IMG/VR virus record: IMGVR_UViG_3300033070_000552
Coordinates: 24,799 to 88,798 of that record
DNA length: 64,000 nt
DNA from: a virus
Taxonomy: Duplodnaviria; Caudoviricetes
Direction: 5' to 3' (one strand)
Shown here: positions 2,063-61,633 of the stretch, in pieces
How the letters are laid out: each line of letters starts with the position of its first letter
How positions within the stretch are numbered: position 1 is the first letter of the stretch
Position numbers and translations under genes: made by a program
Notes under the pieces: model-generated
Database searches by the model: none
What the model saw: the letters and a program-made list of their open reading frames with translations, nothing else
What the model was told of the DNA's origin: nothing

Positions 2063-2295
2063 TATTCGCCCCCGTTATTTCGCCGTGAAATATCGGTCCG
2101 CTGCCACGGGTAGACGACGGGCGGCACGTCGATGGTGGGGTCGAGCCGCTTGGCGAGCCCGGCGGCGATAAACCGGATCAGCTTCAATGTTCTGGTGTTC
2201 TTGGCCAACTGCTCGCCCTCGCATTCGAGGTATTGTCCGGCCTCTTCGGCAAGTTCCATTACCAAGAGAACACATTGGGCCGATCGGTCATTCAT
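2062..2295 (-). CDS. hypothetical protein (77 aa)
   Basis: ATG 3 nt after the CGGGAACGTCT motif; TAA overlaps the dnaE ATG (TAATG). Confidence 0.6.
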   Translation of the reverse strand: MNDRSAQCVLLVMELAEEAGQYLECEGEQLAKNTRTLKLIRFIAAGLAKRLDPTIDVPPVVYPWQRTDISRRNNGGE

Positions 2296-2849
2296 GCTAG
2301 ACGTTCCCGCGAGAGATTAATCAAAGCCCCGGTGATCCGATCGCACGCGACGTAGACGTACCGCTCGCGAACGCGCCCAAACATAGCCATGCCCTTGATC
2401 ACGTCGCCGCATTTGATTCGCTCCCACCTGATCGTCAGCGTGAGTTTGAGCGTGTCGGCGTCGGGCACGACCTCCCACACGTTGTCGTGGCCGCCCACTG
2501 TGCCCGGGGGTAGCGGCCTAACAATCGCCCGCACGTCGCCGGACCTCTCGCCGTTTGCGGAGTAAATGTACGTCCCGGGCTTGGGCGGCTTGGACTTGAA
2601 GCTGGGGAGGTTGGACGATGGGTCGCGGTGGATCTCGTCGCTCGACTCGGGCGCGTCGAACTGCTTGCCGCACTTGTCGCAGACGTAGATCGGGAACTGC
2701 TCGCCCGGCACGCCCGAGGCGACAGCGACGATGTTCCCGGCGTAGACCTTGCCATCGCGGGATGGTTTCTTGTACGAGCCCCCGGCCATGTCGCACGGGT
2801 CGATCTTGTGGTGCCCGTAAACGGTCGGCGACTTCGCGGGCTGGCTCAC
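2292..2849 (-). CDS. hypothetical protein with CxxC (about 185 aa)
   Basis: 3' part of track ORF 2292..3041; GTG 2849 overlaps the exonuclease stop (GTGA); contains YVCDKCGKQF. Confidence 0.6.
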   Translation of the reverse strand: MSQPAKSPTVYGHHKIDPCDMAGGSYKKPSRDGKVYAGNIVAVASGVPGEQFPIYVCDKCGKQFDAPESSDEIHRDPSSNLPSFKSKPPKPGTYIYSANGERSGDVRAIVRPLPPGTVGGHDNVWEVVPDADTLKLTLTIRWERIKCGDVIKGMAMFGRVRERYVYVACDRITGALINLSRERLA

Positions 2850-3901
2850 ACAAACCCCATCGGTCTGAGCACGGTCTCGCACGTCTCGGCGGCGAACCCG
2901 TAGGTGCCCCGAAGCACGCGGGTGGCGTTCGCGAACGAGATCCGACGCTGGCAGTTGGCGATAGTGCCGACGATCGTTCGAGCGGCGGCGCTGGCGGCGG
3001 TTCCGCCCGACCACGCGGCGAGATCCATCTGCGAACGGCAAATTCGCGAGAGCGTGAACGAGAGGTTCGCGGCCTCGACGTTATTGGCAAGAGCCACGTC
3101 GACCGCGTAGGGCTTGGGCTTGGTGATCCGATCGCGGGCGTAGTCGATCGCGGCCATAAGCGAGCCGTGGGCCCCGATATAGGCCGACGCGGTTTTCTCG
3201 CCGAACTTGGGGACGCCGGGGATATTGTCGCCGGTGGCGGGCTCGCCCACCAACGCTTTCCAGTCGACGTACCGATCGGGCGTGAACGGGAATTGAGAGG
3301 CGAACTCCTCGGGGCCGACGAGCTTCTTAGAGACACCTCGCCACACCGAGACGTTGGGGCCGACGAGTTGATAGAAGTCCTTGTCGTCGGAGACGATGAT
3401 CGTTCGCGATGTCATGTTCGCGAGGGCCGTGCCGATCAGATCGTCGGCCTCGAACTGGTTGTGATAGACCTCGGGGAGCCCCAGGTGTTTCACGCCCTTG
3501 ATCGCGACCTCCATCGCGGCCTTGGTGCGCAGGGCCTCGGCGATCTCGTCGTCGGTCTTGGCGGCGTCCTGCCTGAGCTTGTACCCGGGGTGGACCTTCC
3601 GCTTGTTCTCGACGCCGCCGTCCCAAAAGAGCACGAATCGGTTGGTCCGAAAGATCGAGCAGCACGTCGCGACGATCTCAAGGAACCCGTGCAGGCCCCG
3701 CGTGTCCTCGCCGGTGGGGGAGGTAAGGCCGTCGCGGGTGTGGATCGCCCGGTAGACCGCATGGCGGGCGTCGAAGAACAGGGTCGTCTCGTTGACCGGC
3801 CACTCGGCGGTCTTGAGCTTGATCTCGCGGAAAGGGTCCTCGGCCTCGGGGAGGTGAACCTCGCCGAAGTCAACCTGGCGGGACGATGCGGTCTGGGTCA
3901 T
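2846..3901 (-). CDS. 5'-3' exonuclease / flap endonuclease (Pol I N-terminal, T4 RNase H-like)
   Basis: FWDGG...HPGYK, EADDLIGT, SDDKDFYQL, LVGE..GDNIPGVPKFGEKTA motifs. Confidence 0.93.
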   Translation of the reverse strand: MTQTASSRQVDFGEVHLPEAEDPFREIKLKTAEWPVNETTLFFDARHAVYRAIHTRDGLTSPTGEDTRGLHGFLEIVATCCSIFRTNRFVLFWDGGVENKRKVHPGYKLRQDAAKTDDEIAEALRTKAAMEVAIKGVKHLGLPEVYHNQFEADDLIGTALANMTSRTIIVSDDKDFYQLVGPNVSVWRGVSKKLVGPEEFASQFPFTPDRYVDWKALVGEPATGDNIPGVPKFGEKTASAYIGAHGSLMAAIDYARDRITKPKPYAVDVALANNVEAANLSFTLSRICRSQMDLAAWSGGTAASAAARTIVGTIANCQRRISFANATRVLRGTYGFAAETCETVLRPMGFV

Positions 3902-3922
3902 GGGCTGGCCTCGCTGGATATT

Positions 3923-4114
3923 TCATGGTGAAATAAAGGGGATGGTTTCGGGCTCCGGTCGATATCGCAGGGGTGTCGGGGTGGACTTGAATGGAAGGCG
4001 GGCGGTGACGACCCGCCGTGGGTTGGTGCTCCTTCGATCCGGCATCCGGGAATCGAACCCTTCTTCCATCACGATATCTACGCGCCACACGGGTGGTAAT
4101 TTCGATTCGGCCAC
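3923..4114 (-). CDS. hypothetical protein (63 aa)
   Basis: GTG-start ORF whose stop lies inside a palindromic motif. Confidence 0.4.
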   Translation of the reverse strand: MAESKLPPVWRVDIVMEEGFDSRMPDRRSTNPRRVVTARLPFKSTPTPLRYRPEPETIPFISP

Positions 4115-4366
4115 CCGCCTTCAATGGTCCCCGATCACCCGTCGATGATCGAGCCCCAACAGTCCTCCGCGTCGGCGAACCGGCGCTACGTCTTGTTCCT
4201 GTCCCCGAAACTACGACCTCGGTTATCTATCACGGGCTCGCCTGATTGCTCGGTGAGCTTGCGCGACACTTGACGAGATCCAGACGTTTCACCCTCGGGG
4301 TTGGCGGGGTGGGGGCTTTGCGGACCCCTCTGGACTGCGATAGACGTTCCCGCGAGCGGCGATCCC

Positions 4367-4403
4367 AAAAATGAAAGAATGCCCGGGGGAGGCCCTGGGC
4401 ATT
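4367..4403 (-). terminator. intrinsic terminator downstream of the tRNAs
   Basis: Minus strand AATGCCCAGGG-loop-CCCCGGGCATT followed by CTTTCATTTTT. Confidence 0.7.
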
Positions 4404-4445
4404 AAAGATCGGCTTTGAATCCGCCGACAGGAGTTGGTGCTGTAA

Positions 4446-4517
4446 TTGCGGGGCTTGGATTCGAACCAAGGACCATCGGATTATGAGACCGATATTCTGC
4501 CGCTGAACTACCCCGCA
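4446..4517 (-). tRNA. tRNA with CAT anticodon (elongator Met or Ile2); CCA not encoded
   Basis: TGCGGGG/CCCCGCA acceptor, GTTC/GAAT D stem, loop CT-CAT-AA, T arm CTTGG-TTCGAAT-CCAAG. Lacks initiator features. Confidence 0.9.
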
Positions 4518-4518
4518 A

Positions 4519-4592
4519 TGCGAAGGGGAGGACTCGAACTTCCGGCCTTCGGGCTTTTACACCCGACGCTCTACCAACTGAGCTACCTTCGC
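4519..4592 (-). tRNA. tRNA-like gene with atypical 8-nt anticodon loop (identity undetermined)
   Basis: GCGAAGG/CCTTCGC acceptor, GCTC-AGTTGGTA-GAGC D arm, TCGGG-TGTAAAAG-CCCGA anticodon arm, GGAAG-TTCGAGT-CCTCC T arm. Confidence 0.8.
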
Positions 4593-7186: not shown

Positions 7187-7201
7187 GCGAGACGTTCCCG
7201 C

Positions 7202-8320: not shown

Positions 8321-8323
8321 GGG

Positions 8324-8883: not shown

Positions 8884-8928
8884 CGACAGACGTTCCCGTG
8901 ATCGGACCTCCGATATTTCATGGTGAAA

Positions 8929-9990
8929 TTAGGCCGACCGATCGCTCTGGAGCGAAAGCGGTAGCGACGCCTTGTGGATCTCGCACCACTTGACGATCTT
9001 CGCCGTCTGGGGCTTGGAGAGGTGCGAGCCGAACACGCAAAAGACCATCGCCACCTCGTCGGTGGTGTGTGCGAGCTTCACCCACCCGGCGGTTTCGAGA
9101 TATCGCTCGGGGTCCTTGCCCGCCGCCCTTGATCGAAGATCGTCCGACCCCTCGACCAGCTTGAACGCGAGCCAGCCGTGCCCCATGTAAATGCACGGAT
9201 AGAACCGCCCGTCGGGCGAGAGCCACCCGGCCTTGGGCTTCATCGACGGATCGGGTTCCGGGATCGGCCACTTGTCCATCGCGATCTGGAGGGCGATCGC
9301 GCCGTCGACGTTGCCCCTGAGTTCCCGCATCGCGTAGAAGGGGGTGTTGTCGGGGGTGAGTTCGGCGGCCTTGGGTTGGGCTCGCTCTAATCGCCGCCCC
9401 TCGCGGTCGGCCTGCCGGGCCTCGTGCCTGTCCTTCATCGCGTCGCGAATCTTCGGGCCCCACGTATTCCAGAACACCGACCACTCCTCCTTGGTCGGGC
9501 GAGGCATCATGCGGGCGAGCATGAGCGTCACAATCTCATGCCCGACGTACCCGACCGGCGAGGCATGGGTCACGAGCCCCTCGGCTATAGCCGCACTCCC
9601 GTTGATCGGGGCGCACGGCAAGCCCTGCGCACAGTGCGCGAGAGGCCCGAGCGACTTGATCACCTCGAAGTGCTTGGAGAACTTCTCATACTCCGCGAGC
9701 CGGTCGAGCATGAACCGCATCGACGGGGCCGGGTAGTTGACCCCCTTGCCGTACCGGGCGATCGGGTCCCACGAGTCGCCCGCGATTTGCACAAGCCCTT
9801 TAGGGATCGATCGGAGAGTCAGCGATCCGCCGATGATCGCGAACACCGAGTCGTCGTCGATCCCCGGCAGACCCTCCGAGAGCAATCGGTACGACTGAAC
9901 GTACTTGCCATCGACCCAGAGCGAGCGGGCGATGTCGACAAGACCGGTGGCGTCGATACCCATTGAGAGCGATTCGGTGTGCGTTGTCAT
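8929..9990 (-). CDS. hypothetical protein (353 aa)
   Basis: Long ORF; ATG 3 nt after CGGGAACGTCT. Confidence 0.7.
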   Translation of the reverse strand: MTTHTESLSMGIDATGLVDIARSLWVDGKYVQSYRLLSEGLPGIDDDSVFAIIGGSLTLRSIPKGLVQIAGDSWDPIARYGKGVNYPAPSMRFMLDRLAEYEKFSKHFEVIKSLGPLAHCAQGLPCAPINGSAAIAEGLVTHASPVGYVGHEIVTLMLARMMPRPTKEEWSVFWNTWGPKIRDAMKDRHEARQADREGRRLERAQPKAAELTPDNTPFYAMRELRGNVDGAIALQIAMDKWPIPEPDPSMKPKAGWLSPDGRFYPCIYMGHGWLAFKLVEGSDDLRSRAAGKDPERYLETAGWVKLAHTTDEVAMVFCVFGSHLSKPQTAKIVKWCEIHKASLPLSLQSDRSA

Positions 9991-10213
9991 ACGAGACGTT
10001 CCCGATCGCGAGGCTCCACCGATATTTCATGGTGAAATATCCGACCCCGACTTCCCCTCTCTCAATACCCATATCCCGCGCGGCGTGCGCCTTAAGATTC
10101 CCGCGAAACCGATTCTCAAATCGCCGATTCGGGAAATCTGGTGAAAATAGATCAGATTTTTGAAGATTCTTGGGGTTTATTTCGCCATGAAATAAAACGA
10201 CCCCCTGTTCGGG

Positions 10214-14065: not shown

Positions 14066-14093
14066 GTCTACCGCCCTTTATTTCATGGTGAAA

Positions 14094-17000
14094 TTACGGA
14101 CCCGCGTTGATCGTGATGATACGGGTTCTCTGAACCTCCGCGTCGATCTCGTTGACCCGCACCGTGACCTCGTTCAGGACCGCCACCGCCTCCTTGAGCT
14201 TGTTCGCGGTGCTGGCGATAGCCCCCAGAGACGCCTTGGCCGAGGCGGTTGTCGCCCCGCTCAAAGAGGCCGCCGAGTTGGAGAGGCTGTTAATCGCGTC
14301 AGGAAGCCCCGAGAGCGATCCGTCGTCCGGGGTAGACCCCGAGCCCCCGTAGGGGGCCGGACCGCCCGTAGGGGCCTCATCGCCCCCGTAAATAGGGCTG
14401 GTGGAAAGGTCGGGAAGATTGTCGCCCCCATAGAGCGGGCTGGTGGGGTAGCTCTTGCCCGATTTGGGCTTGCGGACGACCGTACCGGCCTGGGATGCGG
14501 GCGGGGCGGGCTTGCGAAGCTCCGACTCGCGGCGGGCGATCTCATCGAGCAGAATCTTGAACCGGGTCGCGACCTCTTTTTGTTCCTGGGCGATCTTTCT
14601 GGCGGTTTCGAGATCGCCCTTGTTGATCGCCTCGCGGCGCTGCCGCTCCAGAGCGTCGTACTCGGTTTTCTGGGTTTGTGAAACGACATCGCCGAAGCGG
14701 CGGGCCTCGCCCCCGGAGTTGAACTCCGAGAGCTTGCCGCGAACCGCTCCTCGGAACGTGCCCACGTCGCTCGATCCGGCGATCCCCGATTCGGCGGACC
14801 TCGCCGCGTCGAGCACGCCCGCCGAGCCCTGCCCGGCGCGAACCCGGTCGGCGATTTCCTCCTGGAGCAGCTTGAGCCGGTTGGCGGCGAGACGGTTGGC
14901 CTCCTGCTCGCGAACAAGCTGGGCCTTCTCGTACGCGCCCGCCTCTTCGAGCTTGGCGATGTACTTCTTGATCAGGTCGTCGCGGACGGCGAGGTTGTGG
15001 TTCTTCTCGGCGTCGCGGGCGAGCGACCGAAGCTCCTCGGCCTCCTTGAGCTGCGCGATCTTCCGGTTCTCGACCTTATCGGCCTCCCGCTCGGTTTGCT
15101 TGCGAACGGCCTCGGTGATCTTCGACTGGCGAATCGTTTCCGCCGACTGCAACTCCGCCCGGGTCTGATCCTCGATGTTCCTGATCTCGATCTGCCGCTC
15201 GTCGTCCGAAAGACCGATCGCCTCCCGGATCGCCTTGATCCTCGCGTCCCGCTCGTCGTCGATCCGTCGCATGGCCTTGTTGTGGTCGATCTCGATGCGT
15301 ACCCGATCGGCTCCGAGCAGATCGCCCTTGGCCTTGAGCGCCTCGGCCTCGCCCTCGCGGATTTCATCGCTCGCCTTGGACGAGGCGTCCCGCCGCTTGC
15401 GAACCTCGTCATTGTAGAGTTCGGTGTACTGACGCTGGTTATCTTCGAGCACCTGTCTGATCTTCGCAGCCTGGGCGTCGATAACCGCGATCGAGTTGGC
15501 GGCCTCGGGGGAGCTAGCCCCGCCGTCCTTGTCGATCGTTGCCTTGCGGCGAAGTTCGAGGTTCTTGAGCTGTGCTTCGAGCAATACCCGCTCGTCGGCG
15601 AGTTCCTTGGCCTTGGCCTGCGCGGGCGACTGTCCCGACGTTTGGCGGTCCTTGGCGATCTTGTTGAGTTCGGTATCGAAAGCGGCGACGACCTTGGTCG
15701 TCTCGTTGATGATGTCGCGGAGCTTGACGTTGCCGCTGCGAAGGTCGAGTGTGGCGTTGGCGTACTTGTTCGACGCGGTGACGACCGAGTTCATCTGGGA
15801 TTCGATCTCGGCCAGACGGTCCGCGATCTTGAGCCCCTCCGACTCCCCGTACGTTGCGCGAAGCACGGCCCGAAGGTTCGCCGACGTAGCGACAACCTTT
15901 CCGGTGGCCTCGTCGATACGCACATACCCATCGACGTTGTTCCCGGCTTTGGCCTGCTCGACGGTCGCCTCGCGAACCTTGTTGGCGAGCTGCTCGTACT
16001 CCCCGGCCAGCGTATCGACGATAGACGCGGCGGCGTTCTTGCCGTAGGTCCTTTCGAACTCGGCGTTGAGTTCCCTGAGCTTGGCCGCCGCCTCGGCGTT
16101 GCCCGCGTTGGCCGACCTTGCGAGGTCGGCGAGGTTCTGGAGCTTCTCCGCAACGTTGGTCGCGAGTTTGGCGTTCTCGGCCATGCGCTGCTGGAACTTC
16201 TCGTCGTTGGCCTCGGCGTACGACTTCTTCTGGGCCTCGGCGAACTTGAGGAGCTTGTCAGAGGCGACGTCCTGGCCCGACCTGGACTCGATCAGCCCGA
16301 AGAACTCAAGGGCCTTCTCGATCGCCTTGCCGATCGCGTATCCGATCCCGAGGAACACCGCCGCGACGGCCGTCGCGGCCACTACGGCCGTCGCGATGGT
16401 CGCGATCAAAGCACCGATCGATGCAACGGCCGCCCCGATCGCCGCGCCCATCGCGGTAAAGGTGCCCGTCGCAACAACCGCCGTACCGGCGGCCGCGCCG
16501 GTGGCGGTTGCAAGGGCGGCCTCTGCCGCCGCCGCTGATCCCGTTGCCGCCGTGAGCCGAACCATCGCCGCCGACTCGGCCTCGGCCGCGATCGTCGCGG
16601 CGGTGGTTGCCGTCGCGACCTCGGCCTGGGCAACGGTGGTAAGCGACGCGGCGGCGGTGAGGTCCCGCGACGCCGTCGTCGCGATCGTGGTTGTACTCGC
16701 GGCCTTGGCGACGACGGCCTCCCGAGCGGCCGTGGCGCTGGCAAGGGCGGTCTCGGCCGCCGCAAGTTCGTTGTTGGCCGAGACCAGATCGCGTACCGCC
16801 GACGGGATCAGGTTCGCGGCCCCTGGGGTCACGGCCTTGAGCCGACCGTTGGCCCCGCGATTCGACGCGGCGAGGTTGAGACCCGCGACGCGGTTCTCGG
16901 CGACCTCCTGCCGCAGCACGGCGGCGGTGAGGGCGTCCTCGGCGACCCGCTCGGCGATCCGGGCGTCGGTCATGGCCCGCGACGCGGCGGTGGCCGTGGT

Positions 17001-18560: not shown

Positions 18561-18592
18561 ACGCGGGGTTTATTTCATGGTGAAATATCGAC

Positions 18593-21507: not shown

Positions 21508-22488
21508 CTATCCGCCAAACCCGAGCGACTTGGCGATATCGCCCTTGGGGGGCTCGCCGTAGACGTGGCCGAGCAGGGCGGGGTTCTCGATGATCCCGCC
21601 GAGCCGACGGATCAGCGCGTCGCAATCGCGACCGACAAGACGCCTTGGGTCGATGAGCTTCTCGATGTTGTCCATGTCGTCGAGCATGGAGAGACGCCAG
21701 ATATCGAGCGCCTCGAACATGTGCAACGGACGCGGGTAGTCGCGGGGGCGAACCTTGGCCATGCCCGGGACCCGATCCTGCGGACCCTGCCTCGTGGGGA
21801 TTGTCGGCTCGCCCTCGATAAACGAGTACCCCTCCATCATTCGCTCGGCGACGAACCCGGCGGTCACCCCGACGACGCGGCGGTCGCGGTTGAGCATGCG
21901 AACGAACCGGGCCCCCTGCACGTCCTCGGTCTCCTCGGAGATCGGCGGGCGGGTCTCGGTTCGCTTTGAAAGAGCGGCGACGCGGGTCTGGGGTTTGGGA
22001 TCGGGCTTTGGCTGCTCGTCCTCGTCGTCCTTCGGACGCGGCGCACGCTTGACGCGGCGATAGGGCCGCTCGTCCTCGTCGATCCCCTCGATCTTGATTT
22101 TGGTGGGGGTGGGCTCGGAGTCGTCCTCCTCGGGCTCGATCGGGCGAACGGTGATCCGGCCCACGCGGGTCATGGGCGGGGGGCTCCTCGGGGCGGGCTC
22201 GGTAAAGCCCTCGTCCTCCGCGACGCTCCCGGGGCCGGGTTTATTTCGTGGTGAAATAACGGGCCTGGGCTTGGACGCCTTGGGGGGATTGACCGGATTG
22301 GGCGGCTCGACGATCGCGTCCGGGGCGAGGATGAGCGGCCTCTTGGGGGCGACACGGACGGCGGGGGCCGACACCTCCGGTTTATTTCGTGGTGAAATAA
22401 CGGAATCCTTGCGTCGTTCCGGGGGCTTGATCTTCGCGGTTGTCGGTTTGGTGATTCGAACGGACTCGATGCGGGTCTGCTTGGCCAT
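21508..22488 (-). CDS. hypothetical protein, Pro/charged low-complexity N-terminus
   Basis: 326 aa; contains two copies of the palindrome read as ISPRN. Confidence 0.55.
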   Translation of the reverse strand: MAKQTRIESVRITKPTTAKIKPPERRKDSVISPRNKPEVSAPAVRVAPKRPLILAPDAIVEPPNPVNPPKASKPRPVISPRNKPGPGSVAEDEGFTEPAPRSPPPMTRVGRITVRPIEPEEDDSEPTPTKIKIEGIDEDERPYRRVKRAPRPKDDEDEQPKPDPKPQTRVAALSKRTETRPPISEETEDVQGARFVRMLNRDRRVVGVTAGFVAERMMEGYSFIEGEPTIPTRQGPQDRVPGMAKVRPRDYPRPLHMFEALDIWRLSMLDDMDNIEKLIDPRRLVGRDCDALIRRLGGIIENPALLGHVYGEPPKGDIAKSLGFGG

Positions 22489-25944: not shown

Positions 25945-26009
25945 GGTGCGGTTGATAATACCGCATTTGGGAGTCCGCGTCACCTTCGGGGTACGGCTGG
26001 GAGTTTATT

Positions 26010-26744
26010 TCATGGTGAAATAACCCGGAATGGCCGACCCGGCATCCTTCGGCCCGAGGGCTTGTACCCGGGGGAGGCGGCCCCCGAAACGACCGCGATC
26101 TCCCTGAACAGCCCCTCGATCTTCACGAGCCTCTGCCGGATGTACTCCCGCGTGAACCCGAGCGAGTTGCCGACTTGTTCGAGCGTCCGTCCGCTCAACC
26201 TTCCGACGACGATGAGATACTCGATATCGTCCAGCGAGTCCATGATCGCGTGAACCGCCTGCCGCTCGATCGGCGAAAGAGGCTCAGGCGTTTCCGATCG
26301 GTCTACGAGCTGCGAGGCCCGGTCCCACTTGGCGATTTTGCCGTACGGATCGCTCAGCGATTGAACGTACCCGGTCCTTCGCATGATCTCCGCCGTTTGC
26401 TCGGGCATCTGGTGGAAGTCGACGACCCCGCGAATCAGCCTGTCGTTTCGTCTCCGCATACGAACGAGCCAGTGGGGCAGGAAGTTGAACGCGGCGGTCT
26501 TTGGGTCGCACGAGCCGTCGTACTTCGAGAGGCGGTCGCCGACGTACTCGAATGCATAAGACACGTACTCGTCGGCCCGGTCCCCGCAGCACTTCCCGCA
26601 GTGGAACCGGATCAGGCCGATATGTCGCTCGATGAATGCGTTGCGGGCCTGGGTGTCGCCCCTGGAGGCGGCCTCGGCAAGATCGCGATCGGTGCGGGGA
26701 TCGGCGGATCGCTTGGGGTCCTGAACGTAACGGATATTTGACAT
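26010..26744 (-). CDS. RNA polymerase sigma-70-family factor
   Basis: Region 2-like GDTQARNAFIERHIGLI and region 4 HTH GRTLEQVGNSLGFTREYIRQ. Confidence 0.85.
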   Translation of the reverse strand: MSNIRYVQDPKRSADPRTDRDLAEAASRGDTQARNAFIERHIGLIRFHCGKCCGDRADEYVSYAFEYVGDRLSKYDGSCDPKTAAFNFLPHWLVRMRRRNDRLIRGVVDFHQMPEQTAEIMRRTGYVQSLSDPYGKIAKWDRASQLVDRSETPEPLSPIERQAVHAIMDSLDDIEYLIVVGRLSGRTLEQVGNSLGFTREYIRQRLVKIEGLFREIAVVSGAASPGYKPSGRRMPGRPFRVISP

Positions 26745-27851: not shown

Positions 27852-28010
27852 TAGGCGGGGTTGGAGGGCGATGCGTCCTGGGGGATCGTAGGGGAAACGG
27901 CGGCGTTATTTCGTGGTGAAATATCGGAGCCCCGAAGGGCCATCCTGGCGAGCTGCGCCCGCTGAACCCCTAGAAGCCCTTTGGAGTATCTCGCCGTGGG
28001 GTTTGCCGCG

Positions 28011-30539: not shown

Positions 30540-30598
30540 TGGGTGGTTCTCCGTACGTGGGGGCGGCGATATTTCACCGTGAAATAAACCGGGTTCGG

Positions 30599-33206: not shown

Positions 33207-34087
33207 GGGGCGGGGGTGGGAGTCGATATCCCTGCGATATCGACCCGGAGACGTTTACCGTCGATGGGGGATTCCTTGTAGAGCCGGTCCTTGGCGATCT
33301 CGACGTACTCGGGCGAGATTTCGATGCCCGTGAAGTACCGCCCGTGCTTGGCCGCGATCACGGCGGTGGTGCCCGAGCCGAGAAACGGGTCGAGCACCAT
33401 GTCGCCGGGTCTGGAGAACGTCTGAACGAGATCCTGGCAGAGCCGGTCGGGGAAGGTCGCGGGGTGGCGGAACTTGGTGGGGTTGGCCTCGGTGACGGTG
33501 CCGCGATAGTCCCACACCGTGCCTCGACACATCGTCGCGGGATTGATCAGTACCTTCCCCGGTTTGTTTTTGACCCATCCGTCCTTACCGAGATGTCCGG
33601 TGCTTCCGCTGCTACGAGTTTTCCCCGGTCGCGATGTCGGGATAAACGTTGTCGACTTATCGAACGCCCGCAACTTCTCGCCGTTGCAGAACACAAAGAC
33701 GTGCTCGTGGTCTCCGCGGAAGCACGTCGGGAAAATGCCCGGGATTCCCCCGCGTCGATAGACCAGATCATCGAACAACCGCCACCCCATCTCCATCCAC
33801 GCGGCCGCCATGCGGATCGACGTGCCCGACCTCAGCCCGTTCTTGCGGGCGTCCTGAATGACCACGATCGCCGCCCCCCCGACAACCGTGGCCCGTTTGA
33901 TCTGCTCGCCGAGCCGCTTGAGATCGACCGACCACTTGCCCTTGTAGTTGCGCAGGTCGTCGTACGGCGGGCTCGTGACCGTGCAATGGATCGACCCGGG
34001 GGCGATCTTCCCCAGTACGTCGTGGCACGAGCCGATGAGGATGCGCGAGCCGTCGGTGAGCTGACGCGGCGTGAGGATGTCACCCAT
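33203..34087 (-). CDS. DNA methyltransferase (N4-cytosine/N6-adenine, beta class)
   Basis: TVTSPPY, HPATFP, VLDPFLGSGTT. Confidence 0.92.
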   Translation of the reverse strand: MGDILTPRQLTDGSRILIGSCHDVLGKIAPGSIHCTVTSPPYDDLRNYKGKWSVDLKRLGEQIKRATVVGGAAIVVIQDARKNGLRSGTSIRMAAAWMEMGWRLFDDLVYRRGGIPGIFPTCFRGDHEHVFVFCNGEKLRAFDKSTTFIPTSRPGKTRSSGSTGHLGKDGWVKNKPGKVLINPATMCRGTVWDYRGTVTEANPTKFRHPATFPDRLCQDLVQTFSRPGDMVLDPFLGSGTTAVIAAKHGRYFTGIEISPEYVEIAKDRLYKESPIDGKRLRVDIAGISTPTPAP

Positions 34088-35900: not shown

Positions 35901-35997
35901 GACGGAAAGCCTCCATTGGCGATCAGTGTAGACGATCGGGGATTGTTCCGCACAATCGGTGGAGGGGTCGGTTTATTTCACCATGAAATAAAACGGG

Positions 35998-36648
35998 TCA
36001 GCAATCGCGAAGAACCCCGTTCTGGAGCATCGCGTGGTACGAGCCCTTGAGAATCGATCCGCCCCCGGCCCCGCACGTCAGCCCGTTCTTGTCGACGGTG
36101 ATGTTCGGGGCCTCGCCGTGACGCACCCAGCACTTGTGCTCGTGGTCGCCCTTCCTGTCGCAGTTCGAGCATTGCCCGTCGATCATCCAGTCGCCGCCAG
36201 GGGTCCGCACCACGAGGCACCGACCGTCGGGTCCGCGATTGCGTCGATCCTTGTCGCTCTGGTACTGGAGATGACCGTCGACCATCCAGTCGGCGAACCA
36301 CATCGCGCCGGGCGGTGCGTTTCGCATCTCGATAATCTCGCCGGTATCGGTGCGCTTCCAGAAGTTCTTCCACGACGCGACCCGGTAGTCCTTGTCAGTG
36401 AACTCGTACCCGCAGGCGCACCTTCTCGGCCATCGCGGGTCATTGTCGCCCGGGGTCCAGCTATACGACCGCTCGATCTCGCTGGAGGGGTCAACGACGA
36501 GATCGACCTCGGCGTGGCAGTATCCGAGCTTGGGATTTGCCGGGCAGGCGACCCGCCCATCGAACCCACGGAAATAGCTCAGCGTCTTGGGGTGCGGAAG
36601 CGGGGTATCGTGAACCGGATCGATCATAAAGCACTTGATCTCTGCCAT
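35998..36648 (-). CDS. Cys/His-rich protein, DUF6527-like C-terminus
   Basis: MAEIKC... PGAMWF..., HKCWVRHGEAPNITV...GSI...YHAMLQNG. Confidence 0.55.
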   Translation of the reverse strand: MAEIKCFMIDPVHDTPLPHPKTLSYFRGFDGRVACPANPKLGYCHAEVDLVVDPSSEIERSYSWTPGDNDPRWPRRCACGYEFTDKDYRVASWKNFWKRTDTGEIIEMRNAPPGAMWFADWMVDGHLQYQSDKDRRNRGPDGRCLVVRTPGGDWMIDGQCSNCDRKGDHEHKCWVRHGEAPNITVDKNGLTCGAGGGSILKGSYHAMLQNGVLRDC

Positions 36649-36653
36649 TGGGT

Positions 36654-36965
36654 TTATCCCGGTTTCGATGTGATGAGTTCGCCGCTGGTGATGTTGCCGT
36701 GCCAGTGGCCCGTCTTTTCCGCGTTGACCGATGGTTCCAAGGTGATCGTCTCGAACGTGTCGCCGGTTCGATTCCAGACCAGACCCTCGACGTGGGGATG
36801 CGGCCACGGAACCCCAAGCCTGGACAACATCGCGTCGTCGAACGAGGGCTTGAACAAAACCGTAATCCGCGTGGCCCGGCAGTGGGGGCACTCGAACGAA
36901 AGCCCGGTTACGGGTCCGTCTGAGAACGCCCTTGTCCATCGCGGATTAAAGTCCGTCAATCGCAT
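36654..36965 (-). CDS. DUF6527-like protein
   Basis: FECPHC...WNRTGDTFETITLEPSV....HWHGNITSG. Confidence 0.6.
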   Translation of the reverse strand: MRLTDFNPRWTRAFSDGPVTGLSFECPHCRATRITVLFKPSFDDAMLSRLGVPWPHPHVEGLVWNRTGDTFETITLEPSVNAEKTGHWHGNITSGELITSKPG

Positions 36966-36974
36966 GGCTTTATC

Positions 36975-37799
36975 CTATCGCCCCACGATCGGCCTCGCCC
37001 CCGCGTCGAAGATTCGTATCTCGCTCTTAATATCGATCGACCCCCGGAGGATCACGGCCCGGGTCGACGGCACCGACAACGCCCCCGCGACCTGGACCTT
37101 CCAGAACTGGTCCTTGGTGCAGAGCCGGTACCCGCGACCCTCGACGAACCACCCTACGCATGGCGAGAGGGGCTTGCCCGGGGCGATGTACTTTGACCAC
37201 GCCTCCATCGTGCGGTGCTGCTTGTACATCGACGGCGACGGAACCCTCCCGGGCATCGCCGTCGATGGCGTGAAGTCGTCGTCCTCGTGGTAGTAGAGCG
37301 ATGGAGAGATTTCGTCCCACCCCTTGGCGAACTCTTCGAGCATCGCGATACGCGACGGCATGAGCGGGGAGTTCTCGCCGTGGATGAGGTACGCCTGGTC
37401 GACGTACGCCGAGAGCGTGAGGTGGGGGTACGCCGCCCTGATCTCGTCCCTCGCGAGCTTCATCTCGCGGAACGGCCACCCCGCCCACTCGTCCCGTTCC
37501 TCGTGGAAGTGAACAACGATTCGGTAGGGGCCCTGCGCCGGGATCAGTATCTTTCGCTTCGACACCGCGACGAAGGGATCGATCGTTAGCGCCTCGGCGA
37601 ACGAGGGGAAGACGGCCCGGTGCCAGTTGGTCATGAACGCCGTCGTCTGGTGGTTGGCCCCCCACGGGGCCGGGGGATGGCCTAGGAAGCCCCCGGAGCG
37701 ATTCGAGATCGCGGTCGCGTATTCGACGGACCTCCCCGTCGAAACGGCAGGGAAAGGCTTGTAGGGGAAGGAAGCGAGGTCGGACGGGTGGTCGGTCAC
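36975..37799 (-). CDS. hypothetical protein, possible TIM-barrel glycoside hydrolase
   Basis: GTG 37799; VVHFHEE, DEISPSLY, AVILRGS weakly recall GH TIM barrels. Confidence 0.4.
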   Translation of the reverse strand: MTDHPSDLASFPYKPFPAVSTGRSVEYATAISNRSGGFLGHPPAPWGANHQTTAFMTNWHRAVFPSFAEALTIDPFVAVSKRKILIPAQGPYRIVVHFHEERDEWAGWPFREMKLARDEIRAAYPHLTLSAYVDQAYLIHGENSPLMPSRIAMLEEFAKGWDEISPSLYYHEDDDFTPSTAMPGRVPSPSMYKQHRTMEAWSKYIAPGKPLSPCVGWFVEGRGYRLCTKDQFWKVQVAGALSVPSTRAVILRGSIDIKSEIRIFDAGARPIVGR

Positions 37800-40824: not shown

Positions 40825-40934
40825 GGGTCTATGTCCTTGGGGAATGGGCCGGGGGAGTGGCGATATTTCATGGTGAAATATCGGGTCTGGGATCGGGTTT
40901 ATTTCATGGTGAAATATCGGGCCCTGGAACGGCC

Positions 40935-42892: not shown

Positions 42893-42931
42893 GGGTGACG
42901 GTCCTTTATTTCATGGTGAAATAACGTGCGG

Positions 42932-46468: not shown

Positions 46469-46646
46469 CGCTTTCCCTCCAAATATGGTCGGTACGCCGT
46501 CATCCATCTCGCGCCGCACGCGAGGCATTGCCAGTGGGTCCACGTCACGAGTCCGCGAACGGCTTGGTGTACGGCGACCCGCACGACGCGAGCATGGGTG
46601 TGTGGGCAGGTTACGGGTCGCTCCTTTCGCCGAAGATCCGTTTATT

Positions 46647-47345
46647 TCATAGTGAAATAAAGACGCCCCTGAGTGTTTCGAGCCCGCGTCTCCATACGTC
46701 GGCCCCGACGTTGACGAAGTTCGAGACAAGCGTCGTCCCCGCCCCGCCGGGGTAGTCGTCGAGTCGGTGCTTGTACTTGGCGAACGAGGGTTCGAGCTTG
46801 TAGTCGCCCGCCCCGATCTTCTCGCTGTCATGCACGACCACGAACATCGAGGTGTCGGCGATGCGAGCGAGGTCAATCGTGCGGCGCTCGCCGGGGGCGT
46901 GGTCGATCAGGGTGATGTCGGGGCGGGACATGCTGGAGTAGCCGTTCGCCCATGCCGTCCAGTTGACGTTGTACGTCACCTCGGGGTCCTTGCCGTGATA
47001 GCACATCGCCGAGAGAACCCCGTCGGCTGTGACTCGTGATTCCGCCTCGAAGAAGTACCGCGAGAAGTATGCTCGGTTGGAATCGGCACAAATCCGGTTG
47101 GCCTTGTGCCTCGCAACGTGCGCCGCGATGAACGGCGTCGAGCCCTCGCCCAACCCCATCTCGGTGATAAGCCTGAGCGGCGGCACGCCCCCGTTGGGAT
47201 CGGACTGGAACCACGCGAGGGCGAGGGCCATGAGCAGACGGTGCGAGCCGTAGCCGGTCGCCCCGGGGATCATGGCGAGGATTGTCGGGTCGTCGATGTC
47301 GCGACCAAAGAGAGAGACGGATTTGGGGAGGCCTGGGTGGGTCAT
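46647..47345 (-). CDS. class I SAM-dependent methyltransferase-like protein
   Basis: EMGLGEGST, TLIDHAPGERR, VVVHDSE; paralog of 51070..51660. Confidence 0.65.
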   Translation of the reverse strand: MTHPGLPKSVSLFGRDIDDPTILAMIPGATGYGSHRLLMALALAWFQSDPNGGVPPLRLITEMGLGEGSTPFIAAHVARHKANRICADSNRAYFSRYFFEAESRVTADGVLSAMCYHGKDPEVTYNVNWTAWANGYSSMSRPDITLIDHAPGERRTIDLARIADTSMFVVVHDSEKIGAGDYKLEPSFAKYKHRLDDYPGGAGTTLVSNFVNVGADVWRRGLETLRGVFISL

Positions 47346-47385
47346 GGGTCGTCCTAATTTCACGGTGAAATAACGGGGCGGATGT

Positions 47386-49153: not shown

Positions 49154-49195
49154 GGCTCCTGTACCGATATGATACAGTCTATCGGCGGGAAGTCC
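49154..49195 (-). promoter_or_regulatory. sigma70-like promoter overlapped by CCGATA-N10-TATCGG inverted repeat (copy A)
   Basis: TGGACT-N16-TATCAT; 24-bp core identical to the copy at 61430. Confidence 0.7.
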
Positions 49196-49260
49196 AGCCG
49201 ATATCCCTGCGATATCGACAATTTCTTTCGACCCCCATCTGGTAGGGATCGGGTAGGTAT

Positions 49261-51048: not shown

Positions 51049-51069
51049 TTGGTTTATTTCCTGGTGAAA

Positions 51070-51660
51070 TTAGACGGGGAGCGGAATTGGCGGGAGTTCC
51101 CACTTGGACACGTCGATGATATCCGAGACGGCCGTCGTCACCGCCCCGGTGTTGGGGTCGTCGATCCGATATCGAAACCGCGAGAGCGGGCCGTCCATCA
51201 TGTACCCCGACCCCTCGGTATCGTGGGCGATAATGATCGGGACGTTGCTCCAATGGAGCTGGTCGATCACCGGGCCGCGAGCCTCGGCGGGGGACAGATC
51301 GACGAACGCGATCAGGGGCGGTCGCATCTTGAGAATCGCGTCAATCTCGGAGTGCCAGCTTGTCGCCTTTGGGTTGAACGCCTCGCACCAGTGGTTCGGG
51401 TTTGGCTTACAGACGGCGAGCACTTCGAGCGCCCACCTTGAGTTGTCGTCAAGCGACTGGAGGTCGATGTTGTGCGATCGGCATAGACGCGAGAGGTACT
51501 GGGTTGATCCCGGACCCATGCCGAGTTCCAAAACGGAGTGGCGATCGAAGAACTCGAACGAGTTGCCTGCAATACCCCACTCGATCGCCGTGAGCAGGAG
51601 CCGCCGGTGCGACGATCCCTGGTTCATGCCGACGAGGAATCCGAATGGGTCCTTGATCAC
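51070..51660 (-). CDS. class I SAM-dependent methyltransferase-like protein
   Basis: VLELGMGPGST, AFVDLSPAEAR, IIAHDTE; GTGA coupling. Confidence 0.7.
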   Translation of the reverse strand: MIKDPFGFLVGMNQGSSHRRLLLTAIEWGIAGNSFEFFDRHSVLELGMGPGSTQYLSRLCRSHNIDLQSLDDNSRWALEVLAVCKPNPNHWCEAFNPKATSWHSEIDAILKMRPPLIAFVDLSPAEARGPVIDQLHWSNVPIIIAHDTEGSGYMMDGPLSRFRYRIDDPNTGAVTTAVSDIIDVSKWELPPIPLPV

Positions 51661-52775: not shown

Positions 52776-52805
52776 GCGAGACGTTCCCGTACGTTTGCGA
52801 GCCGA

Positions 52806-54192: not shown

Positions 54193-54234
54193 GGGTTTAT
54201 TTCACCGTGAAATATCGCGGACGGATAGCCGATC

Positions 54235-56053: not shown

Positions 56054-56935
56054 TTAGGGCGTCGGCCCGATGACCTCGAACAACTCCGCGTTGCGGTCGT
56101 GGGCGATCTTCCAAAGCTCGGTCTGCCTCTCGGGCGACGACTCGGCCCAATGATCCCGCATTTGAAAGACGGCGATGGAAAGGGACCGGGCGGCGGCGAG
56201 CAACTTGTCGTAATCGGGCGATCCCGGCGTGATATTTCGTGGTGAAATAACCACGTCGCCTCCCCAAGATATCGGCTCGTGGCCGGGATAGCCCTTGGAC
56301 TTGCGGTCGGCGTGGCGGGCCTTGTCGATCTCCCACCGATCCTGGGCGGCGGTCATGTGCGGCGGGCGATGCCGACCCTCACGGGTCCAATGCTGGTGAT
56401 AGTGCGAGAGGTCGCGTCGCTGCCAAAGACACCCGAGCTTCGTCGTGACGTTGAACAACTCCTCGTCGGCGTAGAAGTGGAAATACTCGGGCCAGAGCGG
56501 GCCGCGACCCTTATTGATCCGATTGGCGAACGCCCGGCCCACCCACGGCGATCCGCAGATGCGATCGGTCCCGTCCATCGTGTCTCCGATCGGCTGCATC
56601 ACACCGAACGTGTCGGGAAACTTCTGAAGGAACTCCTCGCGAATCTGCGCGGGCGACTTGAATGGATCGGGGTCCATGTCATCACCGATCAGCACGACGA
56701 CGGGGGCGGCCGAGATGCCCTTGACGGCCCCGTACATTTCGTTGATCGCGGCGGGATAGCCGACGTACGAGCCCGCCGCGTAGACCTCGCAACCCGCGAC
56801 CTCGAACCGGCACTTGGGGTCCTGGAACATCACGACTCGATAGCCCATCGCGACCCACTTGGGGAGGTGGGCCTGGGCCATGCGGGGGTTGGCCGATGGG
56901 AGAATGACGGGAACGCGAAGATCGGTTTCGCTCAT
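56054..56935 (-). CDS. glycosyltransferase family 2-like protein
   Basis: VPVILPS, GYPAAIN, VLIGDDMDP, YFHFYADEEL, HYHQHW. Confidence 0.7.
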   Translation of the reverse strand: MSETDLRVPVILPSANPRMAQAHLPKWVAMGYRVVMFQDPKCRFEVAGCEVYAAGSYVGYPAAINEMYGAVKGISAAPVVVLIGDDMDPDPFKSPAQIREEFLQKFPDTFGVMQPIGDTMDGTDRICGSPWVGRAFANRINKGRGPLWPEYFHFYADEELFNVTTKLGCLWQRRDLSHYHQHWTREGRHRPPHMTAAQDRWEIDKARHADRKSKGYPGHEPISWGGDVVISPRNITPGSPDYDKLLAAARSLSIAVFQMRDHWAESSPERQTELWKIAHDRNAELFEVIGPTP

Positions 56936-58034: not shown

Positions 58035-58075
58035 CGGGTCACTCCGTTATTTCATGGTGAAATATGGTCGGGCCT

Positions 58076-58992: not shown

Positions 58993-59100
58993 GGCTGATA
59001 TCCCTGCGATATGGGATGGGAGGTCGGGGGTTTCGGCAATCCGCCCGCGACCCCGGTGGGGTATCGCGGACAGAGGATTTTTCAGAATGGACCACCGTAG

Positions 59101-59930: not shown

Positions 59931-59993
59931 GGGTGGGCTCCTAGCAAAGTGCGATGTATGCAAAAACGCAGAGGCGAAAGAAAAGTCGGGCGC

Positions 59994-60374
59994 TCACGGC
60001 TTGGCCTTTCGGAAATACTCGCCCGAATCGATCTGCCGATACACGTCCCGCATCTGCGCGTGCTCGTACGCCTTAAAGACCTTGAACAGTTCCTCCTTGG
60101 GAACATTGAAGTTGGCGACCTTGAGCATCTCGCGGATGAACGCCTCGGCGTGCTTCGCCTTTCGGAAATGCTCGATCATCATCCCCGACGGGAGGTGGGT
60201 CACGGTGATCGGATACTTCGACGGCTTGTCGTCGGCGGTCGGCTTGATCCGATCGTGATACGCGAGGCCACACCCCGGAATCGTTTTGGCCGTGACCGGG
60301 CGGGGCTTGATGTTGGTCACGAGCGTCACGGTGATCTGCTCGAACTTCGGATCGGTTGGTTTCGTCGTCGTCAT
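59994..60374 (-). CDS. small early-type protein; paralog of 48045..48410
   Basis: AAGGAGCCCACCC-ATG; GLAYH...VTHLPSG. Confidence 0.7.
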   Translation of the reverse strand: MTTTKPTDPKFEQITVTLVTNIKPRPVTAKTIPGCGLAYHDRIKPTADDKPSKYPITVTHLPSGMMIEHFRKAKHAEAFIREMLKVANFNVPKEELFKVFKAYEHAQMRDVYRQIDSGEYFRKAKP

Positions 60375-60405
60375 GGGTGGGCTCCTTGGGTGGGGTGGTG
60401 GGGGT

Positions 60406-60681
60406 TCAGAAACGAAGGGGGCGGCCGTTGTTCAACGCGGATGCAATCGTCGACCAAGCAAACTCGGCCTCGGCAATCTTGATCGTGCCACCGGCGCGAA
60501 CACTCGCGAAATCGCACATCCGGCCAGCGACGGTGCAAAGCGTCGGCGTCCCGTCGATGATCGCGTAGACGGAAGGGAGGAGCCGCCGTACGTCGGCGAC
60601 GGTCCACGCCTTGTCGGCGGTGAGGACGGCGATCTCGGTATCGGGGTCGGTCTGCTCTTGGAGGATGCTGGGCTTCGTCAT
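60406..60681 (-). CDS. small early-type protein
   Basis: CAGGAGCCACCC-ATG. Confidence 0.65.
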   Translation of the reverse strand: MTKPSILQEQTDPDTEIAVLTADKAWTVADVRRLLPSVYAIIDGTPTLCTVAGRMCDFASVRAGGTIKIAEAEFAWSTIASALNNGRPLRF

Positions 60682-60714
60682 GGGTGGCTCCTGGGGGTTT
60701 GGTGGGTCGAACAA

Positions 60715-60972
60715 TCACTCGGCGAGGAACTCGGTCACCTCGTCGATCTCTTTGTTGCTGATGAACGCGACCGTCTCGATCATGTTCTTTCGGACAAGGT
60801 CGAGGTCCCCGACGTGCCCCCATCCGTTCGGCGCGGCCCCGGCCTTCTCGGCGTGCTTGTCGAGTTCCATCTGCAGCACATCCATCAGGCGGGCGATGTC
60901 GTTCTGCCTCGCGGCGTAGGTCTCGGCGGCGGTGGGTTCGGGCTTGGTGGTCTTCGGGGTGCGCTTCGTCAT
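60715..60972 (-). CDS. small helical early-type protein
   Basis: AAGGAGCACGACC-ATG. Confidence 0.7.
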   Translation of the reverse strand: MTKRTPKTTKPEPTAAETYAARQNDIARLMDVLQMELDKHAEKAGAAPNGWGHVGDLDLVRKNMIETVAFISNKEIDEVTEFLAE

Positions 60973-61011
60973 GGTCGTGCTCCTTTGGGTTGGTGGTCTC
61001 TGGTAAACAGC

Positions 61012-61034
61012 GAAGCCCGCATTACGCGGGCTTC
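61012..61034. terminator. perfect GC hairpin between early genes
   Basis: GAAGCCCGC-ATTAC-GCGGGCTTC. Confidence 0.5.
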
Positions 61035-61383
61035 AGGTCGTCGGGTGGTTGTCGTTCTTGCGGTCCCAACTCGTCGTGTCTTTCGGCTGGCCAACCGCCC
61101 GGAGGTAGTCGACCAACTCGTCGGCGGCCCAGGTGTCGCCGTCGATCGCGTCGTGCTCGTTGGGGGTGTCGGTATCCCGGTCGATCTCGAAGAGGCGGAA
61201 GCCGCCGAGCGCTCCGGGGCGTGGGCCCCAGTGCCCGTCGAGGTGGCGGCCGCGTCCTGCGGGGACCGTCGCGATGTTCCAGGTGCGGCCGTCGGGCGTG
61301 TGGATCTCAATCGCGGGGATGTGGAACCCGCTCTTGGCGAGGGTCTTGGCGAGGTCGAGCGTGGTCTTCGTGGTCGCGTTCAT
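61033..61383 (-). CDS. small early-type protein
   Basis: CAGGAGCACGAAC-ATG; first gene after promoter copy B. Confidence 0.7.
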   Translation of the reverse strand: MNATTKTTLDLAKTLAKSGFHIPAIEIHTPDGRTWNIATVPAGRGRHLDGHWGPRPGALGGFRLFEIDRDTDTPNEHDAIDGDTWAADELVDYLRAVGQPKDTTSWDRKNDNHPTT

Positions 61384-61429
61384 GTTCGTGCTCCTGGGGG
61401 TCTGGTCTTGGGGATCTCGATCCCCACAC

Positions 61430-61470
61430 CGATATGATACAGTCTATCGGCGAGATGTCCACCCCTTGAC
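61430..61470 (-). promoter_or_regulatory. sigma70-like promoter overlapped by CCGATA-N10-TATCGG inverted repeat (copy B)
   Basis: TGGACA-N16-TATCAT; core identical to copy A. Confidence 0.7.
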
Positions 61471-61633
61471 CTAATTTCATGGTGAAATAAACGAGATTTC
61501 TTTCGGAACAATCTGGTAGGGGTCCGGTAGCCTTTCCCGGGGCCGCCAGGGGCCGCCAGGGGCCGCCGTACGGGGCCGGGGGCCCGGACGGGCGGTTACC
61601 CAACCCCGGAGCCCAAACCCCACCCGGGCGATC

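Follow-up and report, generated by a model that had tools for sequence, protein, structure and literature searches.

Short palindromes repeated across a whole replicon are known from phages, plasmids and bacterial chromosomes, and we compare them here with a 17-bp palindrome, TATTTC-N5-GAAATA (the P site), that recurs throughout the tailed phage IMGVR_UViG_3300033070_000552 (Duplodnaviria; Caudoviricetes). The window analysed is the last 64 kb (positions 24,799 to 88,798) of this 88,798-bp IMG/VR record, which CheckV rates as complete; coordinates are window positions unless marked 'genome'. The nearest described phenomenon is the 17-bp dyad repeat TGTTCGG-N3-CCGAACA of Cluster O mycobacteriophages, which its authors expect to be bound by a dimeric protein and whose function they describe as unknown (PMC4351075, PMC6439249). 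The nearest mechanisms are those of KorB on RK2 and of Noc in Bacillus subtilis. KorB, a ParB-family protein with a proven CTP (cytidine triphosphate) clamp and with KorA and IncC as partners, reads about a dozen 16-bp plasmid copies of one palindrome (OB) located 4-10 bp, or 45 to >1000 bp, upstream of target promoters (PMC11790492). The consensus Noc-binding site (NBS) is TATTTCCC-GGGAAATA and that of parS is TGTTTCAC-GTGAAACA (PMC7383237); both have 16 bp, but NBS sites are many and spread over the chromosome (PMC7383237, PMC8429893), whereas the few parS copies lie near the origin and act together with ParA and SMC. Cluster A stoperators, as outlined in PMC4351075, are dozens of asymmetric 13-bp sites of the monomeric immunity repressor of temperate phages (L5 gp71), placed genome-wide in short intergenic spaces and oriented with transcription.

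With moderate confidence, we read the 17-mers as genome-wide docking sites of a phage-encoded orphan ParB, most likely a 373-aa protein of the ParB/Noc/KorB family. Among the three readings offered by an initial annotation made from the window alone (a single dimeric DNA-binding protein, a promoter or a hairpin), the first fits best and the other two fare poorly. The P-site arms TATTTC/GAAATA are letter for letter those of the NBS, the sites are likewise numerous and chromosome-wide, and by both sequence and fold the phage protein matches Noc best. The NBS differs in its centre (CC-GG, compared with ACCAY in the 17-bp phage site), the specificity residues of Noc are not kept in the phage protein and the high-GC phage genome does not come from a firmicute; no evidence was seen for membrane targeting of the phage protein as in Noc. 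The likeness to KorB extends to a single palindrome repeated many times throughout a mobile genome and to a palindrome 2-12 bp upstream of all five sigma-70-like promoters. The phage differs in having 31 sites of 17 bp, a GNTR box in the CTP pocket and most sites between a stop and a start inside transcription units, and no KorA or ParA partner was found; a scan of ~90 proteins, with ~25 small open reading frames (ORFs) outside it, gave no ParA- or CbiA-type match. Chromosomal ParB belongs to the same protein family, and a relative of the phage, G001, uses the parS arms TGTTTC/GAAACA; here, in contrast, the sites tile the genome and their centre is one base pair longer, which would keep them apart from host ParB.

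The Cluster O repeat is, by description, similar in its 17 bp, its 7+3+7 layout, its 31-34 copies, many of them in short intergenic gaps or at gene 5' ends, and its setting in a ~70-kb high-GC siphophage with a ParB-like protein and no integrase (PMC4351075, PMC6439249). Its sequence is different, however, and about one third of the sites in Corndog lie well inside genes and have no meaningful orientation according to the authors, whereas 24 of the 31 P sites are intergenic and their centre is orientation-locked. The P sites also resemble stoperators (PMC4351075) in number, intergenic placement, orientation and genome-wide reach, but have dyad arms, and no repressor or integrase module was found: protein domain scans detected neither an integrase nor an immunity cassette among the proteins of at least 300 aa, and the phage is apparently lytic.

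Number, anatomy and placement of the P sites

Eighteen exact P sites occur in the window, where 0.00 are expected (100 dinucleotide shuffles), and five further copies carry one arm mismatch (8914, 14079, 47356, 51055 and 61473). The initial annotation had counted 23 copies from 2076 to 61489, and this number stands, well outside the random expectation that it had named as a possible refutation. A 24th match at 40559 has two mismatches and looks like chance. With at most one mismatch allowed, the whole record holds 31 P sites, AT-rich motifs in a genome of 64% G+C in which a codon-usage model places 114 of 114 called genes on the minus strand.

The coding-strand consensus of the 31 copies is W-TATTTC-ACCAY-GAAATA-W, and 21 of them have the 7+3+7 form TATTTCA-CCA-TGAAATA. 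The arms are invariant save for the outermost base, which is altered by an overlapping TAA stop codon or by a change to GAAATT. The centre is not palindromic, as C8 stands opposite A10, and is locked in orientation on the coding strand (CCA:TGG = 24:2, P = 1e-5), a property left unmarked in the initial annotation, as was the placement of all genes on one strand. Two reversed copies (10178 and 35974) match the same directional consensus once turned; a plus-strand ORF (36034-37293) was considered as a possible cause of a reversed copy and rejected on the codon-usage model. The W positions beside the arms vary independently (T/A 16, A/A 7, T/T 5 and A/T 2, the independence expectation) and therefore do not extend the helix.

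Although non-coding DNA makes up 11% of the genome, it contains 24 of the 31 copies (P = 1e-17). At a typical intergenic P site the upstream stop lies at -13 to +20 nt and the downstream start 5 to 40 nt away; over all P sites the distance to the start codon ranges from 5 to >90 nt. The spacing is more even than random, with a step of ~2.8 kb, a largest gap of 5.4 kb (P = 2.5e-4) and a coefficient of variation of 0.56 (P = 3e-4). Placement at gene junctions, as first proposed, holds for 20 of the 23 window copies but not for those at 22242, 22383 and 56233, which are inside real ORFs. Some copies do contain the upstream stop codon, as had been stated: TAA overlaps position 1 in AATTTC variants and TGA occupies positions 11-13 at 26006 and 46643. 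Record-wide, seven copies fall within real ORFs, where third-position GC is good on either side of the motif. The ACCAC variant accounts for six of them and encodes V-I-S-P-R-N-K, in a frame in which the common ACCAT would introduce a TGA stop. The gene for a 326-aa protein (21508-22488, minus strand) carries two P sites in its disordered Pro/Lys/Glu-rich N-terminal part. The peptide VISPRNKP occurs twice in this protein, because the DNA motif is written into the gene, and also in three other phage proteins. The sites are under selection.

Nine genes behind P sites had been singled out for the lack of a clear Shine-Dalgarno (SD) sequence in several of them, but eight of the nine possess an SD-like run and only the tape-measure gene is without one. 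The run follows the motif directly at dnaE (GGGGG), the exonuclease gene (GAGG), 58034 (GGAG), 42892 and 47345 (both AGGA) and 14065 (GGGCGG), and lies inside the spacer at 51048 (AGGA) and 54192 (GGTGA). When the start is 10-17 nt away, the SD is usually found directly after the motif. Where an ATG is no more than 5-6 nt away, as at three sites, the spacer deviates from the consensus and thereby forms an SD: ACCAG yields AGGA, with both ACCAG copies at the closest starts (P = 0.006), and ACGGT yields GGTGA. The same is seen in G001, where TAGGA gives AGGAG 2 nt before a GTG start and TGAGA stands 3 nt before the dnaE ATG. Since the SD is inside the motif or abuts it, the motif is part of the mRNA and transcription must start upstream, where no conserved element was found among the aligned copies.

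These observations contradict the suggestion that GAAATA serves as a -10 element for short-leader mRNAs. A phage-specific middle or late promoter, used by host RNA polymerase together with a phage-encoded factor, for instance the sigma of the extracytoplasmic function (ECF) type encoded at 26010-26744, would explain why a motif AT-rich for its genome precedes nearly every functional gene block, co-oriented with the genes, in a phage that has a sigma. We nevertheless consider it very improbable: at the closest starts the transcript must begin upstream of the motif, G001-G003 keep the sites but have no counterpart of the sigma, palindromy in all lineages would be unexpected and the G001 arm lacks the -11 A. 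A transcription start downstream of the motif at a fixed distance, as expected for a sigma-dependent promoter, appears to be lacking, with SDs in or abutting the motif and the distance to the start codon variable.

The third early proposal, a hairpin signal, and more broadly an RNA-level motif with a 6-7-bp stem and a 3-5-nt loop, acting as the target of a translational repressor or in nuclease processing of the long one-strand transcripts, would be in keeping with a motif that is transcribed 5-40 nt before many starts, with a loop orientation-locked to the coding strand and with the A-T to G-C change in G001, which keeps pairing. The predicted RNA hairpin is weak, however, at -4.0 kcal/mol for an AU-rich stem of 6-7 bp followed by AAAC and not by U. 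In the relative L051 the motif reads TATATC..GAAATA in seven of seven copies, a fixed A.A mismatch in the would-be stem, and does not fold. One-mismatch copies are never compensated, the flanking W positions are independent, seven copies lie inside ORFs, two are reversed and three precede promoters and may thus be left out of the gene's transcript; we regard an RNA-level role as improbable. The motif has neither the stable GC-rich stem nor the U tract of an intrinsic terminator, and none of the terminator-like matches in a scan coincides with a P site. Promoters of the N4 hairpin type have a stem of 5-7 bp and a loop of 3 nt. Such a promoter was rejected here, as no virion RNA polymerase or T7-like polymerase was found and the sole protein of >1200 aa is the tape measure, and so was a mini-ORF (ATG-AAA-TAA) within the motif, which is missing from the ACCAC, ACCAG and relatives' versions.

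Lineage-specific arms and the 373-aa ParB-family protein

Relatives were reached through homologues of the large terminase (TerL; identity of at least 39%) and form a clade of uncultured phages. The motif scan of whole genome and relatives that the initial annotation had proposed showed that the relatives carry their own palindrome versions at shared junctions. Other searches gave nothing comparable: an exact-motif scan of IMG/VR found no second phage with the same exact array (42 contigs with one copy each, chance matches), and there was no match in a megablast of 20 kb against GenBank phages, in a TerL single-protein scan of IMG/VR or in a metagenome scan with the ParB alignment.

Palindrome arrays are present across the whole clade, with arms that are invariant within one genome and differ between relatives. 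G001 (55 kb) has 15 copies of TGTTTC-N5-GAAACA, G002 (68 kb, complete) has 47 of GATTTCG-N3-CGAAATC and G003 has 19 of AATTGCG-N3-CGCAATT, each with a control count of 0. L059 combines the arms of the studied phage with another spacer (three exact copies and one with one mismatch in 13 kb), and other palindrome forms occur in L052, L053 and L076 (4-5 copies in loci of 17-21 kb). L061, which carries the ParB orthologue P0065, has no site but at 3.7 kb is too short to inform. The centre is directional in G002 too, with CCA on the coding strand (21:6, P = 0.006), and there too all real genes are on one strand. Between 10 and 11 of the 15 G001 sites are at junctions syntenic with P sites of the studied genome: before the tape-measure, dnaE, exonuclease and scaffold genes and the ParB operon, after the primase gene and inside the gene of the 326-aa type. 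At the level of sequence, kept positions together with both arms changing in concert are the signature of a sequence-specific, two-fold symmetric reader that would have co-evolved with its sites. A selfish or neutral short repeat, or recombination linkers without any reader, could account for the partly conserved flanks (cgt..aacc) and the lineage-specific spacer as traces of copying, but is hardly credible given that positions are kept while arms change in concert, that the spacing is even and that copies persist in ORFs with forced synonymous-type variants.

The gene of the candidate reader, at genome 11125-12246 on the minus strand, falls outside the window. The 373-aa protein that it encodes has an N-terminal ParB domain and a central helix-turn-helix (HTH). 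It matches the profiles TIGR04285 Noc (6e-11) and parB_part (5e-10), Pfam ParB_N weakly and a ParB-like PHROG (5e-18); among PDB entries, it matches Noc 7NG0 (3e-5) and Spo0J 4UMK, aligned over the N-terminal domain and HTH. Its AlphaFold model has a predicted local distance difference test score (pLDDT) of 69, with 80-90 in the core, and the best Foldseek matches are Noc 7NFU (5e-10), ParB 7BNK and KorB 8QA9. A homodimer model of the C-terminal domain (residues 296-373) reaches an ipSAE of 0.87, compared with 0.00 for the best of three controls; among proteins solved as pairs of one chain, 20 of 30 attained this value, as did 1 of 23 among those solved as single chains. Between runs, at least 98% of the contacts coincide, and the partner pLDDT is at least 90. 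ParB C-terminal dimers have already been solved, so the result may reflect likeness to them.

Full-length orthologues are present in all four site-bearing genomes (G000, G001, G002 and G003/G006), and orthologue and sites are both absent from two complete relatives, G007 and G010, although these two negatives are distant and the co-occurrence test is weak. About 17 proteins show this profile, and the ParB homologue is the only recognised DNA-binding protein among them. The candidates named in the initial annotation do not qualify: the 6704 ORF has no ParB signature and does not follow the profile, and the sigma (26010) and NrdR-like (7202) ORFs are missing from site-bearing relatives. The position that distinguishes NBS from parS is exactly the one at which the studied phage and G001 differ. 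The HTH helix also differs between TATTTC and TGTTTC phages (N/S, R/K and A/S); the N or S separates the two groups, yet S is also found in G002, whose site has A at the position in question. An attempt to transfer the ParB/Noc specificity code (positions 173, 179, 184 and 201 of PMC7383237) was abandoned, as the phage helix is too diverged for confident alignment.

Operators of another dimeric DNA-binding protein of the phage, perhaps an unannotated conserved one, form a possible but doubtful alternative. The protein would be a global repressor or activator, comparable with the regulators of the Cluster A stoperators or of the dispersed C1 operators of phage P1. It would account equally for the dyad arms, the lineage differences and the kept positions; the short intergenic gaps and the orientation with transcription are as in stoperators (PMC4351075), a second palindrome family is present (below), and conserved proteins of 162, 193 and 351 aa with no known function share the profile of the ParB homologue. 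Against such a regulator, the site-bearing genomes share no other recognisable DNA-binding protein, the scan of proteins of at least 300 aa revealed neither an integrase nor an immunity cassette and the identity of the arms with NBS and parS would be a coincidence.

The gene block behind the ParB-like gene (genome 3909-10134, L055) is conserved in four genomes. Near ParB it encodes a protein like the C-terminal half of SMC_N (212 aa), proteins of 162, 351 and 193 aa, a RecA-like protein, a protein like AAA_23 and the N-terminal half of SMC_N (344 aa) and an SbcD/Mre11-like protein, and it looks like a split Rad50/SbcC-type set.

Early-type promoters, the P2 palindrome and the proposed mechanism

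Exactly five sigma-70-like promoters, TGGAC[AT]-16/17-TATCAT, occur in the genome, all on the coding strand, and each has a 17-bp palindrome 2-12 bp upstream. In three of the five this is a P site 11 nt upstream of the -35 element, accompanied by a third half-site, GAAATC, one helical turn further up. In the other two the place of the P site is taken by a different 17-bp palindrome, GATATC-GCAGG-GATATC (P2), of which the genome has six copies in a single orientation, with 0 expected. P2 also lies directly before three start codons, that of TerL among them. TATCAT is followed by ATCGG in all five; a short hairpin and AGGAGC, a strong SD, come next, and each promoter stands at the head of a small-gene cassette. 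In G001 a near-NBS palindrome, (G)ATATTCCGGGAAATATC, is found 13 nt downstream of the main motif in two early-type modules (L057 4942-4957 and 9495-9510). The ParB-like gene lies behind an early-promoter module in the studied phage, G001 and L059, an arrangement that fits autoregulation.

The docking-site reading suggests the following sequence of events. The ParB-type protein would be made early, from one of the five sigma-70-like promoters, and would dimerise through its C-terminal domain, so that the HTH domains could read two NBS/parS-like half-sites, TATTTCA(C), whose halves are one base pair further apart. Some 31 sites would then be occupied, tiling the chromosome at ~2.8 kb. At the five early promoters the protein, by analogy with KorB, probably represses or otherwise tunes transcription from a palindrome 2-12 bp upstream of the -35 element. 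The remaining sites would be loading or occupancy points, from which the protein may slide or spread and through which RNA polymerase and ribosomes would read.

Several observations weigh against this assignment. The centre of the P site is 5 bp long, whereas that of parS and NBS has 4 bp, and no 16-bp parS occurs in the genome within three mismatches. The GERR box of the CTP pocket is GNTR in 13 orthologues, GDGR in G002 and GAHR in G006, and thus a CTP-clamp mechanism, judged from these residues, is unproven. Of the DNA-contact residues that ParB and Noc have in common, only some are retained (K171 and Q162 are not), the helix differences between TATTTC and TGTTTC phages are confounded by phylogeny, and ~16 other proteins, several with no known function, share the presence/absence profile. 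The P2 family implies a second reader or loose specificity, and the non-palindromic L051 version, uniform in its seven copies, hints at a further reader or, again, at loose specificity. A symmetric dimer leaves the orientation lock unexplained, and because all genes are on one strand, here and in G002, the lock is not assignable to transcription as opposed to genome polarity. A tentative alternative, which we think rather unlikely, makes use of this lock: an orphan ParB/Noc-type protein with a non-canonical nucleotide pocket would serve across the whole clade as a chromosome-wide direction-sensitive device, the sites being ParB-based stoperators or insulators that set transcription-unit boundaries or time early-to-late expression, with the longer centre insulating them from host ParB-parS.

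Genome context and implications

The genome is that of a tailed phage and encodes terminase, portal, MuF, P22-type coat protein, tape measure, DnaE, DnaB-like helicase and primase, as well as RecA-like and SbcCD-like proteins, several DNA methylases and the ECF-type sigma. Coordinates of the P sites, P2 copies and promoters are collected in Table 1.

Table 1. P sites, P2 palindromes and sigma-70-like promoters of the studied phage
Feature	Position	Strand	Remarks
P site	2076..2092	-	spacer ACGGC; 13 nt before dnaE ATG; overlaps end of 65-aa ORF
P site	3919..3935	-	17 nt before 5'-3' exonuclease ATG; syntenic site in G001
P2	6670..6686	-	4 nt before ATG; its GGGA can serve as SD
P site, AATTTC variant	8914..8930	-	upstream TAA overlaps position 1; followed by GGGAACGTCT and start codon
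P site	10023..10039	-	within 250-nt gap; followed by GGGAACGTCT and ATG
P site	10178..10194	+	one of two reversed copies
P site	14079..14095	-	directly after tape-measure stop, TAA overlaps position 1; 13 nt before next ATG
P site	18571..18587	-	10 nt before tape-measure ATG; syntenic site in G001
P site, ACCAC variant	22242..22258	-	inside 326-aa gene, read V-I-S-P-R-N-K
P site, ACCAC variant	22383..22399	-	inside 326-aa gene; syntenic gene of relatives bears their own form of the motif
P site	26006..26022	-	holds TGA stop of sigma gene, before scaffold-like gene; syntenic sites in G001, L049 and L053
P site	27907..27923	-	between portal and MuF genes
P site	30570..30586	-	spacer ACGGT; 30 nt before GTG start
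P2	33225..33241	-	18 nt before large-terminase ATG
P site	35974..35990	+	second reversed copy; syntenic site in G001
P site	40864..40880	-	proximal member of tandem pair (36 bp apart), before 769-aa tailspike-like gene
P site	40900..40916	-	distal member of tandem pair before 769-aa tailspike-like gene
P site	42907..42923	-	14 nt before ATG; SD AGGA right after
P site	46643..46659	-	spacer ACTAT; holds upstream TGA stop
P site, GAAATT variant	47356..47372	-	abuts SD AGGA; 10 nt before ATG
Sigma-70-like promoter TGGACT-16-TATCAT	49169..49196	-	2-3 nt (3 by coordinates) downstream of P2
P2	49200..49216	-	replaces P site upstream of promoter 49169..49196
P site	51055..51071	-	spacer ACCAG creates SD AGGA; ATG 6 nt downstream
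P site	54198..54214	-	spacer ACGGT creates SD-like GGTGA; ATG 5 nt downstream
P site, ACCAC variant	56233..56249	-	inside 293-aa ORF, read V-I-S-P-R-N-I
P site	58048..58064	-	between two small genes; SD GGAG right after
P2, CATATC variant	58997..59013	-	4 nt before ATG
Sigma-70-like promoter TGGACA-16-TATCAT	61434..61461	-	11 nt downstream of P site
P site, GAAATT variant	61473..61489	-	early-promoter module; extra GAAATC half-site 5 nt upstream
P2	genome 10981-10997		
Sigma-70-like promoter	genome 12594-12621	coding strand	
Sigma-70-like promoter	genome 16438-16465	coding strand	
P2	genome 16478-16494		
Sigma-70-like promoter	genome 18195-18222	coding strand	

A further short element, GGGAACGTCT, has 21 copies on the coding strand of the genome, ~15 of them in the window (for example 7190-7199, 8888-8897, 9994-10003 and 52779-52788, minus strand) and mostly 3-5 nt before an ATG; its GGGA could be an SD. 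It is identical in G001 and L058 although the palindrome arms have changed there. Two adjacent tRNA genes (4446-4517 and 4519-4592, minus strand; Rfam 66 and 60 bits) lie in an 812-nt gap downstream of an SNF2 helicase gene. The phage has at least five N6/N4 DNA methylase genes, among them 33203-34087, 62380-63276, genome 441-1697 and genome 22648-23412, and in two methylase genes a ParB_N domain is present or adjoining. The ECF-type sigma gene (26010-26744, minus strand) is located between the MuF and scaffold genes; several relatives have inteins in their MuF genes instead of a sigma gene beside MuF.

Our literature search found no paper describing a ParB docking array in a lytic phage. Descriptions of genome-wide short phage palindromes, the Cluster O repeat among them, go back to 2015 but leave them unexplained, and ParB-like genes are common in lytic phages but have no known job. 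To these the present case adds arms identical to NBS and parS around an odd centre, near-exclusive placement at junctions with SDs in the spacer, an orientation lock and a tie to five early promoters. It links palindrome arrays with ParB-like genes through arms that agree letter for letter with NBS and parS, through in-step site change at kept positions and through a ParB homologue that is the sole conserved recognised DNA binder. If the link is true, ParB/KorB-type proteins would be a general tool of phage chromosome control, beyond the partition of plasmids and chromosomes.

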